Of a DNA stretch of 64,000 bases, positions 7,088 to 63,362 are shown one piece after another. The translations under genes and the position numbers were made by a program. Every line of letters begins with the position of its first letter. The first letter of the stretch is position 1. The notes under the pieces were generated by a model that was not told the origin of the DNA, ran no database searches, and was given only the letters and a program-made list of their open reading frames with translations. Location of the stretch: NCBI GenBank assembly GCA_051313645.2, contig JBNRSN020000014.1:34410001-34474000 (forward strand), written 5' to 3'. This DNA comes from Centroscyllium fabricii (lineage: Eukaryota).

Positions 7088-7397
7088 GGGCGGCACAGTG
7101 GCATAGTGGTTCGCACTGTTACCTCACAACGCTAGGGGCCTGGGTTCAAATCCGGCCTCGGGTGACTATCTGTGTGGAGTTTGCACATTTTCCCTGTGTC
7201 TGCGTGGGTTTCCTCCGGGTGCTCCGGTTTCCTCCCACAGTCCAAAGATGTGCGGGTTAAGTTGATTGGCCATGATAAATTGACCCTTCGTGTTAGGGGG
7301 ATTAAATATGTGGGGTTACGGGGATAGGGTGGGATATGTGTCCCTGCAGGCTCGATAGGCTGAAATGGCCTCTATCTGCACTGTAGGGATTCTATGA
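7088..7397 (+). mobile_element. HE1-type V-SINE
   Basis: tRNA head gggcggcacagtggcatagtgg with B box gggttcaaatcc. V domain gtgggtttcctccgggtgctccggtttcctcccaca. Confidence 0.9.
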
Positions 7398-7502
7398 TGT
7401 GCTTGAAGCTGGCCTGAAGATGTTGGTCTGCCAGTTTGGGGGGTTGAACAAGTGAATATCTCCAATATTCCTCGTCCTGTGAAGTTCAGTCTTCATGTAA
7501 AA

Positions 7503-7791
7503 ATAATAATAATAATAATTCAACTTTATTGTCATTATACAATGTACAAGTACATGAACAACGAAATGTGATCTTGCAAGCTCCCAAGAGTCCAGCAAAG
7601 CCGCTGCGTCTGTGTGCGCCGCCATTCCATCTTTCCATCATTCCGACAATCTTCAGCCAACCGCCCCTCCCTGGGGCTCCTTTCGTGACCTTCTGCACCT
7701 GGTATTCCCTGGTGGTCACCCATCCAAGTACTGAACGAGCTGACAGCCAGCCTGCCACGCCCTCCCTCCTCTCTCCTGGTATGGCTCTGCT
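7503..7791 (-). mobile_element. 5S rRNA-headed SINE with Rex1-like leader and tail
   Basis: On the - strand: gccatacca (5S 5' end), then agtacttggatgggtgaccaccagggaataccaggtgc (5S internal/C-box region), then ggaatggcggcg..., gggagcttgcaa...gacaataaa and (tta)n. Confidence 0.75.
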
Positions 7792-8080
7792 GGGTGATGC
7801 TGATTCATTGCTTCGGTTCCGAGACCTTTTACTGTTGGTCCAAATGCAATAACTTTTATATGTAAGCCAGTGAAGATCATGTGTCCTTGGATTCAGTTTT
7901 CTCTAGCACAGTGCCCAGAAAGTGATATTGAATGTATAAGTGACCGCATCGTGCAGGAACCACCAAGTGGATAGGTAACACAACTTTTTTTAAAGGGTGT
8001 AAAAAGTTTTAAATGTTCTTGCTACTTGATATCTCTCTCTCTCTCTCTCTCTCTCTCCCTGGTGTATATCCTGTTGCTAG

Positions 8081-13970: not shown

Positions 13971-14184
13971 GTCAGAGTTTGAATTTGGCAAAAGCTTGGA
14001 GTTCCTTTGAACATTTAACTTTGTTTGAAGGCTGCTAGTGTTTGGTATTTTTTTAAACAAACTTTGCCTTCAGCTCACTTCTGAAAGCTTAGTCTGAGGT
14101 AATTGTTTTGGTGTCGGCAGCTGCAGCTCTGCTCAAAGTGTCTTTGCACAAATTCTCCTCCCCACACAGTTTTCACCAGCTCAT

Positions 14185-14562
14185 GGGCAGCACGGTGGCA
14201 CAGTGGTTAGCACTGTTGCCTCACAGCTCTGGAGACCCGGGTACTATCTGTGTGGAGTTTGCACATTCTCCCCGTGTCTGCGTGGGTTTCCTCCGGGTGC
14301 TCCGGTTTCCTCCCACAGTCCAAAGATGTGCGGGTTAGGTTGATTGGCCAGGATAAATTGACCCTTAGTGTTAGGGGGGGTTGAATATGTGGGGTTACGG
14401 GGATAGGTTGGGATATGTGTCGGTGCAGGCTCGATAGCAATATGGGGGGAGGGCAGGGGCGGGGTGCTGGGTTTGGATGATCAGCCATGATCTCATTGAA
14501 TGGCGGAGCAGGCTCGAAGGGCCGAATGGCCTACTCCTGCTCCTATCTTCTATGTTTCTATG
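14185..14562 (+). mobile_element. HE1-type V-SINE with CR1 3' tail
   Basis: V domain plus tail gatcagccatgatc...ggcctactcctgctcctatcttctatgtttctatg, near-identical to CR1 3' ends. Confidence 0.9.
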
Positions 14563-17692: not shown

Positions 17693-18811
17693 GGCTTGGA
17701 ATTTGCAATGGGTAATAACAGCGAGCGAACAGCGTTCGCTGCTGTTACCCCTTTGAAATTGACTGCAACTCTTAGGGGCGGCACGGTGGCAAGCACTGTT
17801 GCCTTACAGCACTAGAGACCCGGGTTCAAATTCAGCCTCGGGTACTATCTCTGGAGTTTGCACACTCTCCCCGTGTCTGCGTGAGTTTCCTCCGGGTGCT
17901 CCGGTTTCCTCCCACAGTCCAAAGATGTGCGGGTTAGGTTGATTGACCATGATAAATTGACCCTTGGTGTTAGGGGGGTTGAATGTGTCGGGTTACGGGG
18001 ATGGGGTGGGATGTGTGTCGGTGCAGGCTCGATGGGGATGTGGGGACAAGGCAGGGACAGGGTGCTGGGTTTGGATGATCAGCCATGATCGCATTGAATG
18101 GCGGAGCAGGCTCGAAGGGCCGAATGGCCTACTCCTGCTCCTATCTTCTATGTTTCAGGATTAAGCGCAAGCGCATCCTAACGCGAGATCCTGAAGTTCA
18201 CTGCACAGACACTGGCTGCACTCTTGGGGGCCCCCCACCCAAAATAGCCAGCAGTCGGTGTAATGTGGAAAAATCAATAAAACTGACTCGCTTTTCCGCA
18301 GTAATATCACTGTTAAATACCCCATTAAATGTTGAGCCTTGTTGGATTAGGTGTAACTGGGGTTTTAACAGCATATTGACTGCTAAACAAACGTGTGGCC
18401 CCCCAAAAAAACTAATTTTAATTTTGTGCAGTGTCAAATTTCTCATGATTTAAAAATGATAATTTACAAGAAACTTTAAAAGAAAATATTTTTTTCTTCT
18501 TTTTTTTCAGGTTTGCCTTTTCCCCATGTGAGAGCCCCAATCTTTGTTTTACACTAACATTTTTTAAAAAGTCAGAATAAAAGCAACTGCACTTCCTAGC
18601 TCCCTGTCTGCAAATTCTGCATTGTGATTGGCTGCTTAGACAGCTTGTTGACACCACAGCAGCTATGGGATTCTCAATAAACTGCACTGATCTCAACTGC
18701 ACGTCGAAAATGCCGAACTTCTTGCCACAGAGATCGTGAGCTATCTGGGAAGCTTTGTTCAGGGCCAGCGGTGAACGCCTTCGCTTTGCCGCTGACTGCA
18801 AATTAAGGGCC
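17693..18811. mobile_element. Harbinger-like MITE containing a nested HE1 SINE (17775-18155)
   Basis: Imperfect TIRs ggcttggaatttgcaat / actgcaaattaagggcc. AT-rich centre, no ORF. Confidence 0.65.
17775..18155 (+). mobile_element. HE1-type V-SINE with CR1 tail
   Basis: tRNA head, V domain and CR1 tail. Confidence 0.9.
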
Positions 18812-25500: not shown

Positions 25501-25794
25501 TCTCTGCAAAGTTATTTGTGCAACGATCACCACCAGCCGCTCCATAAACCAAACCCTGCTGTGGTATTGAACAGCATTACTCTGAAGATACAAGGGTGGG
25601 GGGAGGGGATTAGTACAAATCCACTGCAGGCTGCTCCATTTCTCTGTACCGGTTATGTATCTGGGCAAGTATGAGGAAACTCGCTCACCAAATGTACATG
25701 GGTATGCAAAGATGACTTGTGTTGGCACATCATTCCATTGGGACTAGCCTCAGGGCAGTACTTCCAATGTTCCCTTGAATTTGTTTTTACCAAA

Positions 25795-28700
25795 ATCAAA
25801 TCAAGTTTATTGGTCACATACATCATTATACTTGTACAAAGTGCAGTGAAATGCTTGATTGCAAGCTCCCTTGCCTGTGCTTGTCCAAATAACAATAAAT
25901 ACAGAGAATAGTTAAAAGAAGAAATAATAAAAATAATAAGTTATCTGTAAAATAACCAATTCCTTACAACTATGTGCATATAACCAGGTAATATATACTA
26001 TATGGACAAAGATACAGATGAGCAGATATACGAGTATGCATATATACAAATATAAATTACAAGATGTACAGGATGCTCATGGCAATACTAGATGCTCATG
26101 GCAATAGTGCAGTTATTGGCAGGCAATGTATGCTCTTATTCAGTTCAGGTGTATTCATATATCCTGCGAAGATTGGCCGTATCATTTTTGTTGTCATCGC
26201 CATCATCAGGGAGCAGCGTGCAGACCCTTGGCAGCGTCCTCATTCAGGATCCGGATGGCTTGGGGATAGTAGCTCCTCCTGAGCCTCTGTTGGGCTTAAT
26301 GCTGCAGTAAAATTTTCCTGACCGCAGCGGTGAGAAGAGGCCGTTGTTCGGGTGGCTAGGATCCTTGATGACCACCTTAGCCTTAGTCCTGCTCCGTCTG
26401 ATGTAGATATCCTGCAGGTTATGGGAGTGCACCCCCGGTGGTACGCTCTGCCAACCGTGCTACCCTCTGCAGGGCCTTACGGTCCTGTTTAGTGCTGTTC
26501 CCGTACCAGGCGGTGATGCTCCCCGACAGGATACTCTCAATAGTGCCTGTATAAAAGTTCTTTTGTACTTGGGGGAACATTCTAAACTTCCTCAGACGTC
26601 TGAGATGGTAAAGACGCTGCCGTGCCATCTTCACCAAGGTGTCTGTGTAGGGACCCTGTCCGGTCCTCTAAGATGGACACCGAGGTACCTGAAATTACTC
26701 ACCCTCTCTACTGGGATCCCATCGAACCTGAGAGTTATAGTTCCTCTCCTGCTTCCTCCCAAAGTCCACTATCAGCTCCTTTGTCTTGCTGACGTTCAGG
26801 AAGAGGTTGTTGTCCTGGCACCACAGTGACAGGTTCTCCACCTCCTTCAGGTAGGCCTTCTCGTCAATGTTGGTGATCAGGCCCACCACAGCTGTGTCGT
26901 GAGCAAACTTCTTGATGGTGTTGGAGTCCTGCGTGGCCACAGTCATGTGTACAGGGAGTACAGGAGGGGACTCGGGATGGAACTTTGGGGGGGGGGCGGC
27001 CCTGTGTTGAAGATGAGGGTCGATGAGGTGTAGCTGCCTACTCTCACCACCTGGGGTCTGCCCGTCAGGAAGTCGAGGACCCAGTTACACGGAGATGTTC
27101 AGTCCCAGGTCCCTGAGCTTGGGGCCGAGCTTGGAGGGGACTATGGTATTGAAAGCTGAACTGTAGTCAATGAGCAGCATCCTGTTGTCCAGGTGGGATA
27201 GTGTGTTATGCATAACGTGGGCAATGGCATTGTCCTTGGATCTATTGGGGCGGTCGGCAAACTGCAGTGGGTCCAGGGTGCCGGGTAGTGAGGAGCAGAT
27301 ATAATCCTTGACTAGCCTCTCAAAGCACTTCATGGCTACAGAGGTGAGTGCTACAGCGCGATGGTCATTCAGGCAGGCTGGGTGTGCGATCTTTGGCACC
27401 GGGACTATAGTGGACATTTTAAAACATGGGTATAACAGACTGGGTCAGGGATAGATTGAGTATCACCGTGAACACCGGTGCTAGCTGGTCAGCGCAGGCC
27501 TTGAGGATGCGCCCGGGTATGCCGTCCGGTCCTGCTGCCCTCCGGGTGTTCACCCTCCTAAAGGTCCTCCTCACGGCATGCTCTGAAATAGTGAACGTAC
27601 ACTCCTCTCCGGCAGGGGCTCTCGCTTCAGGTGCGTTAGCCCGTGGGCTAATGCTGTCGCCGTTAACCTCGAAGCGTGCATAAAATGAGTTTAATTCTTC
27701 TGCCAGAGGTGTGTCGGCGCTCACCATGGTGGAGGGTTTCCCTTTATGGTCTGTGATTGTCCTTAATCCTTGCCACATGCGTCTTGTTGGAATTGGGTTT
27801 CCACTTTGTCACTGTACCGTCTCTTTGCCTCCTTCACCACTCTCCGTAGGTCGTATGCAGCTGTTTTGTACTCGTCCATGTTCTCGGACACTAGCCCTGA
27901 ATTATAGGCAGCGGTGCGTGTGCTCAGAGCTTCGCAGATGGTTTTATCCACCCACGGTTTCTGATTGTTCCTTCGGTTACCATCAGGACATTTCCCAATC
28001 TCCTCTACCAGTTTACCAACGAACCCCACAACTGCTTCCGTAAACATGTTGATATCATCAGAGCTGGCCAGGAACATGCCCCAGTCGACGTCACTCAGTG
28101 CGTCCTGTAGCGTGTCTTCTGATTGGTCAGTCCAACGTTTAACCTCCCTTGTCACCGGAGCTTCCTGCTTAAGCCTTTGTTTATATCTCAGCATGAGAAA
28201 AATGGTGGCATGGTCTGATTTGCCAAATGGAGGGAGAGATTGAGCTTTATAACCGTCTTTGAACAATGACTACCAGTGATCCAGTGTCCTTTCCCCTCTG
28301 GTAGGGCATATGATGTGCTGACAAAATTTGGGCATTACCTTTTTGAGGTTCGCCCTATTAAAGTCCCCAGCCACGATGAGGGCTGCATCCAGGTGTGCGA
28401 TTCTGATATTTGTTGAGTACCTCATGCAACTCTGTACAATGTCGGTATCTGCTTGAGGTGGAATATAAACAGCTGTGATGATGACCGAGGTGAACTCCCG
28501 GGGAAGGTAGAACGGGCGGCATTTGATCGTCAGATATTCCAGGTTGGGCGAGCAGTAGCATGATAGAGTTACTACATTCTTACTGTCGCACCAGTTGCTG
28601 TTAACCATGAGATACACGCCTCCTCCCTTTAACTTACTGGACTCTCCTGTTCTGTCCATACGATGGACAGAGAAGGACCCAGCTGGCTGGATCGCCTGAT

Positions 28701-29126
28701 CCGGCACCGAGGGACTCAGCCATGTTTCGGTCAGACATAGAATGTTGCAGTCCCTAACATCCCGCTGGTATTTGATCCTTGCCCTGATGTCGTCCAACTT
28801 GTTCTCCAAGGACTGGACATTGGCTAGCAGGATACTGGGCAGAGGTAGACAGTGTGCACGGGTCCTCAGCCTATTCCGAACGCTGGCCCGTCTCCCCGTT
28901 GCTGTTGTGGCCCCCATCGCCATTCCAAAGAATCTCTCTCGGCCAGGATGAACCAATGAATGGAAAGTCGGAAAAACGATGAGTAGTCTGTAATCCAATG
29001 TTTTGAGTATCTGGCGGTCATATGTGGTAAATGCCACAACGGTAGATGAAAAAACATAAAAGACTAAATAAAAGCAATTTAATTAGAGCTGGCAGGACAG
29101 CATCTGAACATAGCAGTGCCATTTCC
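25795..29126 (-). mobile_element. Near full-length Rex1/Babar-like LINE, frameshifted (APE + RT)
   Basis: LANVQSLENK, LCLTETWL, GDFN (endonuclease). [22 protein letters not shown] (RT). 3' end aataaac(ttgat)n. Confidence 0.88.
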
Positions 29127-59726: not shown

Positions 59727-60100
59727 ACGACACGGTGGCGCAGTGGTTAGCACTGCTGCCTTGCAATAAGGAGCTCCTGGGTTCGAATCCTGCTTGGCCC
59801 GGGACCTCTCTGCGTAGAGTTTGCATGTTCTCCCCGTGTTCATGTGGGTTTCCTCCAGGTACTCCGGTTTCCTCCCACCAAACAAAGACATGCTGGTTAG
59901 ATGAATTGGAGATACTAAAAATAATTTCCTATGAATATGTGTGTGAGATATAGTTCTTAGAGTTGGTGGTGTCAGGGGAATATGAGGAGAGGGTAGGAGG
60001 GGGGCACTGGGTTTGGATGATCAGCCATGATCTCATCAAAATGGCGGAGCATGCTCGAAGGGCCGAATGGCCTACTCCTGCTCCTGTCTTCTGTGTTTCT
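59727..60100 (+). mobile_element. HE1-type V-SINE variant with CR1 tail
   Basis: A box tggcgcagtgg, B box ggttcgaatcc, V domain and CR1 tail. Confidence 0.88.
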
Positions 60101-60892
60101 GTGACACTGGTGTGCAATGAGCTGACTGTGACACCACTGTACAATGAGATGATGTCACACAGATACCGCGGTGCAATGAGGTGATGTCACACTGATACCG
60201 TTGTGAAATGAGATGATGTCGCACACACCACTGTGCAATCAGATGGTGTCGCACCACTGTGCAATGAGATGATGCTGTGCAATGAGATTATTTACCACTG
60301 ATTTCACTGTGGAATTAGCTGATTTCACACTGTGATACTACTGTGCATTGAGATGATGTCACACAGATGCTGCTGTGCATGGGGATGATGTCACATTTGT
60401 GTTACTGCTGTGCAACACCACTGTGCAATGAGATGATGTCACACCACTGTGCTACGAGATGATGTCACACTGATAAAGCTGAGCAATGAGATGAACAGCG
60501 TTGTGCAATGAAATGATACACTGCTGTGCAAAGAGATGACTTCACAGACACCACCGTATGCAATGAGATGATGTGTGACAATAATGTGCAATGAGATGAT
60601 GTCTCACTGTGACACTGCTGTGCAATCAGATGTCACACTGTTACCACTGTGCAATGAGATGATGTCAGACTGATACAACAGTGCAATGAGATGATGTCTC
60701 GCAGATACCACTGTGCAATGACATGATGTCACAGACACCGCTGTGCAATCAGATGATGCGCTGTGAAATGAGATGGTGTCACTGATACCGCTGTGCAATT
60801 AGATGAAGTCACAGACACCTTGTACAATGAGATGTCACACTGCTGTGCAATGAGATGGTGTCATGTGACTCTGCTGTGCAATGAAATGGTGT

Positions 60893-61199
60893 CATAGAAT
60901 CAGTCCAGTGCAGATAGAGGCCATTTCGGCCCATCGAGCCTGCACCGACACATATCCCACCAATCCCCGTAACCCCACATATTTAATCCCCCGAACACTA
61001 AGGGTCAATTTATCCTGGCTAATCAACCTAACCCGCACATCTTTGGACTGTGGGAGGAAACCGGAGCACCCGGAGGAAACCCACACAGACACGGGGAGAA
61101 TGTGCAAACTCCACACAGATAGTACCCAAAGCCGGATTTGAACCTGGGCCCCTAGCGCTGCGAGGCAACAGTGCTCACCACTATGCCACCGTGCCGCCC
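60893..61199 (-). mobile_element. HE1-type V-SINE
   Basis: Reverse complement of the 7088-7397 type. Confidence 0.9.
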
Positions 61200-61553
61200 T
61201 CTGTGATACTGCTGTGCAATGAGATGGTGTCACTCTGATACCGCTGTGCAATGAGATGAAATCAAAGACACCTCATGCAATGAGATGTCACACCGCTGTG
61301 CAATGAGATGATTTCACACTGTGACACCACTGTGCAATGTGATGATGCCACACTGATACTGCTGTGCAATTAGATGATGTCATGTAACACTGCTGTGCAA
61401 TGAGATGGTGTCATGTGACACTGCTGTGCAATGAGATAGTGTCACTCTGATACCGCTGTGCAATTAGATGAAATCAAAGACACCTCGTGCAATGAGATGT
61501 CGCACCGCTGTGCAATGAGATGATGTCACACTGATACCGCTGTGGAATGAGAT

Positions 61554-63020
61554 TCAAGATAATTTTATTGCCATGTGTAACTCGTACAATGGAATGCTTA
61601 CTCCCCATTCACGCCCACAATTATAAATGTAGCAGTTAAGTAGGCACACTGCCTGTGGGTAGAAACTGTTTTTGAACCTGCTGGTCCTGGTTTGGATGCT
61701 GCAGTACCGACGGCCGGACCGCAGGAGGGAGAACAGATCGTGCCCAGGGTGATTGGGGTCCTTGATGATGGAGCGGACCTTGTTCCGACACCTGGTCTGG
61801 AAGATCTCCTCGATGGATGGAAGTGCACACCCGATGATTTTTTCTGCCGTCATCACGACCCTCTGAGCAGTGTCCTGAGCAGTGGTGTTGCCATACCACA
61901 CAGTGACGCCACCCAACAAGACGCTCTCTATGGTGCCGCGGTAAAAGTTCACAAGCCGTTGCGTGCTTATGCCGCATTTCCTCAGGCACCGTAGAGGGTA
62001 GAGGCGCTGGTGTGCCTTCTTCAGCATTGGCTCGGTGTTATAGTTCCAGGTCAGATCGTCAGAGATCTGCAGACCTAGGAATTGGAAGCAACTGACTATT
62101 TCTACTGATGTCCCGTCTATGATAATTGGTCGGTGGTTGCCTTGATGGCATCTGAAGTCCACGATGAGTTCCTTAGTCTTGATGATGTTCAGGGCAAGGT
62201 TGTTATCATTACACCATCTCATCAGCTGAACTATCTCATCCCTGTACTCCGTCTCATCCTCGTTGCTAATCAGGGCAATTACTGTGGTGTCATCGGCAAA
62301 CTTTATTATCCAGTTGTTGCTGTGTCGGTCTGTTCAATCGTTTGTAAACAGAGAATACAACCGAGGACTGAGGCAGCAGCCTTGTGGCGCTCCGGTATTG
62401 AGGACTAGTGTGGATGAGGTGTTGTTCCCTATTTTCACCTCTTGAGGCCTACCAGTCAGGAAGTCCAGAATCCAGTTGCAGATGGGGATGCCCAGACCTA
62501 GGACCTTCAGTTTCAGGATCAGCTTGAAGGGAACAATGGTGTTAAATGCAGAGCTGTAGTCAATGAACAACATTCTGACGTAAGTGTCCCTTCTGTCTAG
62601 GTGTTCTAGGACAGTGTGCAGTGTTAGGGAGATGGCGTCACCCACAGACCTGTTTGCCCTGTATGCGAACTGGAATGGATCCAAGGAATCGGGGATGATG
62701 CTGTTTATGTGTGTCATGACCAGCTTTTCAAGGCACTTCATAGCTATGGATGTTAGAGCTACCGGTCGATAGTCATTGAGACCTGTTACCTTGGTCTTCT
62801 TAGGTAACGGCACAATGGTTGTCTCCTTGAAGCACACTGGTACGACAGACTGCTGCAGTGAGATGTTAAAGATGTCTGTGAACACAGGAGCCAGCTGGTC
62901 TGCACATGTCTTGAAGACGCGGGGTGGAACTCCGTCTGGACCGGCTGCCTTTCATGCCTTCACCCTCCTGAAGGTTCTCCAGACCTCGGACTCGGTCACT
63001 TGTAGTATGTAATCCTCTGG
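61554..63020 (-). mobile_element. Rex1/Babar-like LINE, 5'-truncated
   Basis: [57 protein letters not shown]. Confidence 0.9.
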
Positions 63021-63362
63021 GTGAACCGCTGTGCAATGTGATGTCACACTGTGACGCCGCTCCGTAATGAGATGTCACACTGTGACACTGCTGTCACACT
63101 GTGACACTGCTGTGTAATGAGATTATGTCACACTGTGACAATACTGTGTAATGAGATGATGTCACATCACTGTGATTATAGTAATCAAAATATGGCTTTG
63201 TGATGTCATATCCTCTCTACCCAGCAATGGTAATCGAAGGCTCCTTGCATGGATAAGCTGACTTTACTCCTTCTCCTGCAAACTCCATCGTACATGTTTA
63301 ATCAGTTTGGTGTATTGGTCCCAACAGGCAGCCATTTGCAGCCAGCTTGATACAGAGTTGGG

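Follow-up and report, generated by a model that had tools for sequence, protein, structure and literature searches.

The closest described systems to the element reported here are bipartite SINEs with a 5S rRNA-derived head and an RTE body, represented by CoeSINE5 of the coelacanth, SINE-1_Pmo of the python, and HaSE3 of a moth (Kojima 2018, PMC5786205). In the cited passages of that paper, RTE and Vingi are the sole sources of SINE middles, bipartite LINEs lacking ORFs come solely from RTE, Ingi, Vingi, and R2, and why so few clades yield two-ended derivatives is left unexplained. In excerpts of a second source, OS-SINE1 of salmonids is composed of a 5S head, a Deu body, and an RSg-1 tail, SINE2-5_NV of a sea anemone carries a Rex1-derived 3' tail and has Rex1-24_NV as its partner, and stringent LINEs are stated to recognize the 3' end (PMC3747384). 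SINEs known from cartilaginous fishes include HE1 (a V-SINE with the partner HER1), SacSINE1 (Deu), and the CmiSINEs (CORE), according to portions of PMC3747384 and PMC5499810. Vertebrate SINE3 elements have been assigned to CR1-clade partners, with Rex going unmentioned in the excerpts of PMC7245038; the excerpts of PMC5499810 and PMC3531059 do not mention Rex either, and the terms sought for an element of the present kind were absent from PMC3472496.

The locus studied here lies in a stretch of 64,000 nucleotides (64 kb, hereafter the window) and holds an element of about 235 bases on the - strand (Table 1). We consider it probable that this is a 5'-truncated copy of a high-copy SINE, made of a 5S head, a spacer, and fused Rex1 termini, that is likely read by Pol III and copied by Rex1. 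The parts follow one another in this order, the family is abundant in four organisms, and its leader and tail are homologous to Rex1-type termini. The initial annotation had drawn a tripartite SINE of 5S head, Rex1-like leader, and Rex1-like tail from 7791 down to 7503; the letters it quoted are found on the - strand where it placed them, and the 68-base spacer between the 5S part and the leader was absent from its scheme.

Table 1. Features of the 5S-headed element and of the Rex1-type LINEs in the window
Feature	Coordinates	Strand	Evidence or remark
3' part of the 5S rRNA-derived head	7694..7735	-	Rfam RF00001, 5S primer match, depth border
Spacer, with a GATGGAA-type unit varying in number among copies	7627..7693 (to 7694)	-	68 bases, no match in LINE upstream regions
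Leader, 5'-terminal motif of a Rex1-type LINE	7587..7626	-	LINE 5'-end matches, profiles
Tail, Rex1-type LINE 3' terminus with predicted terminal stem and AATAAA box	7518..7586	-	BLAST, alignment
(ATT)n microsatellite end, then T5	7499..7519	-	Sequence, T-run scan
Single-copy flank holding GCCATACCAG (7785-7776), outside the repeat family	7736..7791	-	Depth
Rex1-type LINE, full length but decayed; stops and frameshifts interrupt its single APE-RT frame	25790..29126	-	tblastn 28896-26233
Second Rex1-type LINE, 5'-truncated	61550..63050	-	RVT_1, PF09004, tblastn

In keeping with the SINEBase definition of a SINE (PMC3531059), the element is short (<1 kb) and interspersed rather than tandem, since BLAST of the window found no second copy in its 64 kb and the 5' flank is single-copy. 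Part of the region 7480-7900 was present in 20 of 22 listed runs, nine of which held half the words or more. Contigs were mapped from X1, X6, X9, and X11, which represent organisms A-D and come from four studies, X1 possibly being the source of the window itself (runs X17-X20, with shares of at most 0.10, were left out), and the family covered only 7526-7735, with 5327, 1321, 932, and 262 contigs, respectively. In X1 the summed depth amounted to 1.74-2.02 million in each of eight bins across 7547-7714, the spacer being as deep as the rest of the element. The upstream DNA (7736-8000) was single-copy in that run (record 8, no differences), with a depth of 10 on 7757-8000, and the flank at 7736-7791 reached a depth of 10-36 in X1 and 0 in X6, X9, and X11. 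The ratio of element to flank depth was near 1.9e5 in X1, a rough figure because summed depth is not copy number; the family is far larger than 100 copies, probably of the order of 100,000. The lack of cover on 7400-7525 is a filter effect and proves nothing.

Single contigs bridged the joint between the 5S part and the leader (X1 records 3 and 5; X9 record 32) as well as that between leader and tail (X6 record 18; X9 records 25 and 26; X11 records 10 and 12), each reaching at least 31 bases to both sides of the joint (32 of 7845 pieces shown). Given the even depth and the contigs bridging each joint, 5S part, spacer, leader, and tail form one unit, and the high copy number that the initial annotation had set as a test of its claim is borne out, as is its direct fusion of leader to tail at 7587/7586. 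At the 5' side, high depth ended in the bin 7715-7735. Loose ends at 7732/7734 ran on in all four runs into 5S box A-like sequence, and there the letters of the window are unrelated. The window copy is therefore 5'-truncated and starts at about 7732-7735, not at 7791. The stretch formerly drawn as the family head, gccatacca followed by a purine-rich replacement of the 5S middle, is single-copy DNA (X1 depth 10), and a 5S-derived head survives only as the 3' part of 5S.

That part matched positions 68-108 of RF00001 at 7739-7699; its 23.5 bits stay under the gathering score of 38, and the E value is 0.073 in 2.3 kb and 0.0077 in 241 bases. Of the internal promoter it covers the intermediate element together with the region of box C. 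A published primer for the 3' end of 5S matched 13 of 13 bases at 7707-7695 (PMC4635592). A SINE3 is expected to begin with 60 bases or more that share at least 60% of their letters with 5S rRNA; the window copy holds about 40 bases of 5S sequence, to which the loose ends of other contigs add at most 30 box A-like bases. Box A is joined to the family only through these loose ends, and other 5S repeats could account for part of them. Such repeats were clearly present in X9 and X11, where the depth of the 5S part (7693-7735) was roughly threefold that of the body and 5S sequence gave way to a (CAA)n run in loose ends at 7693; this likely marks another 5S-derived repeat family in organisms C and D. 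No run of T4 follows the 5S part or interrupts the body, the T5 behind the microsatellite being the only run of at least four T from 7735 downwards; this is compatible with Pol III transcription, weakly so. An exact-pattern scan with the 5S part gave 0 matches in viral contigs, and ARAGORN found no tRNA in the 64-kb window. Rfam matches to PART1_3, mir-145, and mir-1249 scored far under threshold and were dismissed as chance, and no target-site duplication longer than 5 bases was seen.

In the single-copy flank, the 10-mer GCCATACCAG matches a published primer for the 5' end of 5S and occurs once in the window, where any 10-mer of the two 5S primers is found in 2 of 1280 tiles of 100 bases. 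It stands 53 bases before the AGTACTTGG motif, closer than in 5S, in which the two motifs are about 67 bases apart, and it is possibly a copy-specific remnant of the 5S 5' end, or chance. A box A-like stretch recognized by eye at about 7826-7809 (-) lies upstream of GCCATACCAG, in the wrong order, and is presumably a remnant or chance as well.

For the parts downstream of the head, an alignment of 11 homologs led to 85 loci with Rex1-type LINEs (80 on metagenome contigs and 5 on genome contigs), which were searched with the SINE by BLAST. The leader agreed in 24 of 27 bases with L013, L014, and L052 and in 23 of 26 with L009, with weaker matches in L010 and L075. This 27-base motif precedes the first protein match of its locus by about 190-460 bases. 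L013 and L014 are two insertions of one family whose sequences diverge a few bases upstream of the motif, which therefore marks the 5' terminus of the LINE. In a positional test, which left out 20 loci with short upstream and 55 with short downstream sequence and in which near-identical loci (L002/L003, L013/L014) count twice, the leader scored at least 24 upstream of Rex1-type frames in 6 of 65 regions and in 0 of 65 antisense. These six regions represent five distinct families, L013 and L014 being one; the other 59 had no leader match (other lineages, or truncated or decayed copies). A profile built from 13 LINE 5' ends returned the leader as the top match in the 64-kb window (E 3.7e-5), and one built from the 8 ends that the SINE BLAST had not retrieved still ranked it first (E 0.0079), followed by the 5' end of the window LINE (E 0.45); the training ends were picked by eye after the motif was known, which makes the test only partly independent. 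Exact-pattern scans for the leader gave 0 matches in viral and metagenome contigs. Upstream of the LINEs the spacer had no match (a score of 24 in one region out of 65, at most 20 in all others), and it had no unusual fold (z -0.16), and loose ends and gaps of 8-9 bases in the run contigs fell within it at 7633-7645.

The tail matched L008 (3541-3591) in 45 of 52 bases (E 1.7e-9, BLAST against the 85 loci), and in the positional test it reached a score of at least 24 in 12 of 30 downstream regions and in 0 of 30 antisense. The predicted terminal stem of seven pairs stands in the same register as in L008. Its folding was no stronger than that of shuffled sequence (z -0.58, 88 of 500 shuffles; L052 z -0.46), and among 14 ends only L013 (z -4.06, 1 of 500), L018 (8), and L017 (23) stood out. 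Best leader match (L052, L013) and best tail match (L008) are different LINEs, and L008, L009, L013, and L052, which each carry both a related 5' and a related 3' end, all come from other hosts. The first 12 tail bases agree better with the LINE of the window than with L008, from which it follows that leader and tail may stem from two lineages, the element possibly being a mosaic of two Rex1 lineages.

The window LINEs encode an AP endonuclease, a reverse transcriptase, and PF09004, with a weak PF03372 match in the copy at 25790-29126. Rex1/Babar elements are described, in the parts of the sources at hand, as having the AP endonuclease upstream of the reverse transcriptase in one frame, a conserved 3' UTR, and short oligonucleotide repeats (PMC6274825, PMC13343379), with no ORF1 (PMC13343379). 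The LINE group studied here shows these published features: a single frame, no ORF1, a conserved 3' UTR, and short terminal repeats. When translated, the published Rex1 primers give two peptides (FSSAFNT and an xRLFxLR-like motif) that also occur in its members, about 185 residues apart, which fits the 550-base product of these primers (PMC4635592); as DNA the primers had no good match at any locus (best 4/21 and 7/24 mismatches). None of the homologs bears the name Rex1. Judged by these published features and the primer peptides, the group fits the Rex1 type, and in the tree it lies far from the CR1-like pieces of the window. The LINE at 25790-29126 is 63-72% identical to teleost elements among its best 120 matches, one at 45%; in its endonuclease region the identity to proteins of catfish and carp is about 70%, in line with Rex1 transfers between rays and teleosts reported in the available part of PMC13343379. 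No Rex1 relatives were detected in viral contigs. Loci L081-L085 place Rex1-type LINE sequence in five bacterial genome records, most likely as host contamination, and an extended degenerate tandem repeat occupies 57.2-61.6 kb and 63.0-63.2 kb of the window, around the second Rex1 copy and a SINE.

The initial annotation had likened both termini to the ends of the window LINE. Among 30 selected endonuclease regions placed in a tree, the 8 LINEs of this leader type all fell into one 14-row clade (100/99) that excludes the window LINE, and forcing the latter into the clade was rejected (p-AU 2.7e-39, the group having been named after an earlier tree). The window LINE carries a different version of the 5' motif and was rejected as donor of the leader, with which it agrees in 23 of 48 aligned columns and L052 in 31 of 43. 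Against the 630 bases around the LINE 5' end the leader scored 20, a value reached by 30 of 1000 shuffles, and its best site there lies near 28927 and not at the proposed 29085-29126. For the tail, the 12-base identity to the window LINE had an E value of only 3.2 in BLAST of the window, and the tail scored 24, a value reached by 13 of 1000 shuffles. Both termini are thus Rex1-like as had been proposed, with their matches in LINEs of other hosts.

Mechanistically, the element may go back to a Rex1 LINE of the lineage whose 5' end is of the ATGGCGGCGCG type, of which an internal deletion left about 110 bases, 40 of them at the 5' and 70 at the 3' end. A 5S-derived head with the spacer would then have been added in front; the probable route is template switching, which Kojima's model proposes for RTE (PMC5786205). 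Full-length copies are likely transcribed by Pol III, which would use the internal 5S promoter and meet no T4 stop in the body. Mobilization by a Rex1 protein is likely too: the APE-RT protein of the partner would bind the 3' stem and the (ATT)n end, and the cDNA would be inserted by target-primed reverse transcription. In the window copy reverse transcription would have stopped early, leaving no box A, so that this copy would not be transcribed. The leader most likely persists because the founding deletion product already contained it and because it would help recognition by the Rex1 protein, the latter being a guess to which we give somewhat less than an even chance.

The alternative that fares best concerns this last point. 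The leader could be a functionless relic of the founding deletion, or leader and tail could come from two Rex1 lineages after tail exchange, with only the tail mattering for mobilization; this differs from the SINE origin proposed above solely in the role of the leader, the two are not mutually exclusive, and we give it an even chance. Recognition of the 3' end by stringent LINEs, as stated in the accessible part of PMC3747384, speaks for such a relic, and so do 5'-truncated Rex1 copies such as that at 61.5-63 kb, which show that integration can do without the 5' end in the product. The leader, moreover, does not fold (z +0.76), and the start of the tail resembles the window LINE while the leader belongs to another clade. 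On the other side stand the 24 of 27 leader bases kept relative to LINEs of other hosts, next to a spacer without a match, and a second short element that retains the same 26 bases. This element, at the start of L045 (1-175, +) from another host, contains a stretch like the V-SINE-type repeats of the window (27 of 29 bases), a leader at 61-86 (25 of 26 bases to L052), and a Rex1-type end at 132-151 (19 of 20 bases to the tail of this SINE) with (TTACCA)-like repeats, so that leader and Rex1-type end lie within 150 bases behind a different, V-domain-like body. Of the 18 leader-core matches in the loci and the window, only those of L045 and of the present SINE have a tail box within 220 bases. 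To judge from this one copy, cut by the contig start, L045 may represent another SINE of independent origin that carries both Rex1 ends. A further-reaching model, which we regard as rather doubtful, would have the Rex1 protein recognize a 30-base 5'-terminal motif together with the 3' stem-loop, and Pol III heads would repeatedly have captured two-ended mini-Rex1 units (the 5S head here, the V-SINE body in the L045 host), possibly via a 5S-headed LINE.

Other short elements were seen in passing. An apparently full-length, tRNA-headed V-SINE-like element in L067 (4350-4700, +) has an end that resembles, by eye, the 3' end of the Rex1-type LINE of the window; the profile from LINE 5' ends found no significant leader match in it, and a related piece occurs in L054 (8700-8900). 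The window itself holds a second SINE family, presumably HE1/V-SINE-like, in five copies (7088-7397, 14184-14437, 17776-18036, 59728-59900, and 60892-61199), the first of which lies 100 bases from the 5S-headed element on the opposite strand; the other repeats of the window resemble HE1 and CR1 elements, and this likeness makes a shark or ray the likely host.

A parent in the form of an autonomous Rex1 LINE with its own 5S head and spacer, of which the SINE would be a version lacking the middle, would account for a LINE 5' terminus lying in the middle of the SINE. Against it, no loose end was found at the leader-tail joint among the 24 best supported of 159, and the related LINEs of other hosts begin at the leader, with neither spacer nor 5S upstream. 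Rare LINE copies in the present host would escape both observations, and we consider such a parent unlikely. It is very improbable that the sequence is a variant 5S rDNA unit or a satellite with scraps of Rex1 in its spacer, of which the window would hold a stray copy. The 5S sequence does lead the unit, and the 3' flank is uncovered in all runs, so that the dispersal of other copies is not directly visible, but no T4 terminator follows the 5S part, the contig variants number in the thousands, the unit closes with an exact LINE 3' terminus and a microsatellite end, and the copy stands alone in 64 kb and is 5'-truncated. That a 5S pseudogene and a LINE tail came together by chance, for which a single copy in the window and an Rfam score under the gathering threshold might speak, is refuted by the evenly high depth and by the contigs spanning the joints in four organisms, and this reading retains practically no credence.

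No description of such an element was found in the openly accessible papers searched; the claim of an undescribed family holds for those papers only, and the family may well be deposited in a repeat library (Repbase, Dfam, or SINEBase) under a SINE3 name. In the same papers, the two-ended LINE-derived layout is confined to other retrotransposon groups. The present SINE, high in copy number and carrying both Rex1 termini, brings a CR1-group clade into the sources of two-ended derivatives, explains a SINE body that would otherwise be counted as of unknown origin, provides a large family of insertion markers common to at least four organisms, and pins down a directly testable candidate cis-element of 27 bases at the Rex1 5' end. 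If recognition of both ends were true, the rule would no longer be confined to RTE, Ingi/Vingi, and R2 but would include the CR1-group clade with the greatest horizontal mobility.

Among the known systems, HE1, SacSINE1, and the CmiSINEs likely come from the same host group and differ in their tRNA heads and CR1- or L2-type tails, and SINE2-5_NV shares a Rex1-derived tail and differs in its tRNA head and in that only its tail is reported as Rex1-derived. OS-SINE1, compared by description only, resembles the present element in its 5S head and in a tail common to a fish LINE, RSg-1, which probably belongs to Rex/Babar; it differs in that it has a Deu domain and no LINE 5' piece is listed for it. 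The likeness is greatest to CoeSINE5, SINE-1_Pmo, and HaSE3, in which the two untranslated ends (5' and 3') of a single LINE type are likewise fused behind a 5S head and for which the same origin from an internally deleted LINE has been proposed; here, too, the LINE 5' segment stands directly upstream of the LINE 3' end, as in Kojima's bipartite SINEs. Because its LINE pieces are Rex1-type (CR1 group) rather than RTE, the element falls outside the group of CoeSINE5 and SINE-1_Pmo, and its 5' piece is the very terminus of the LINE and measures only about 40 bases. According to the portion of PMC13343379 consulted, Rex1, like RTE, has no ORF1; this suggests a link between the two-ended layout and LINEs with a single frame.
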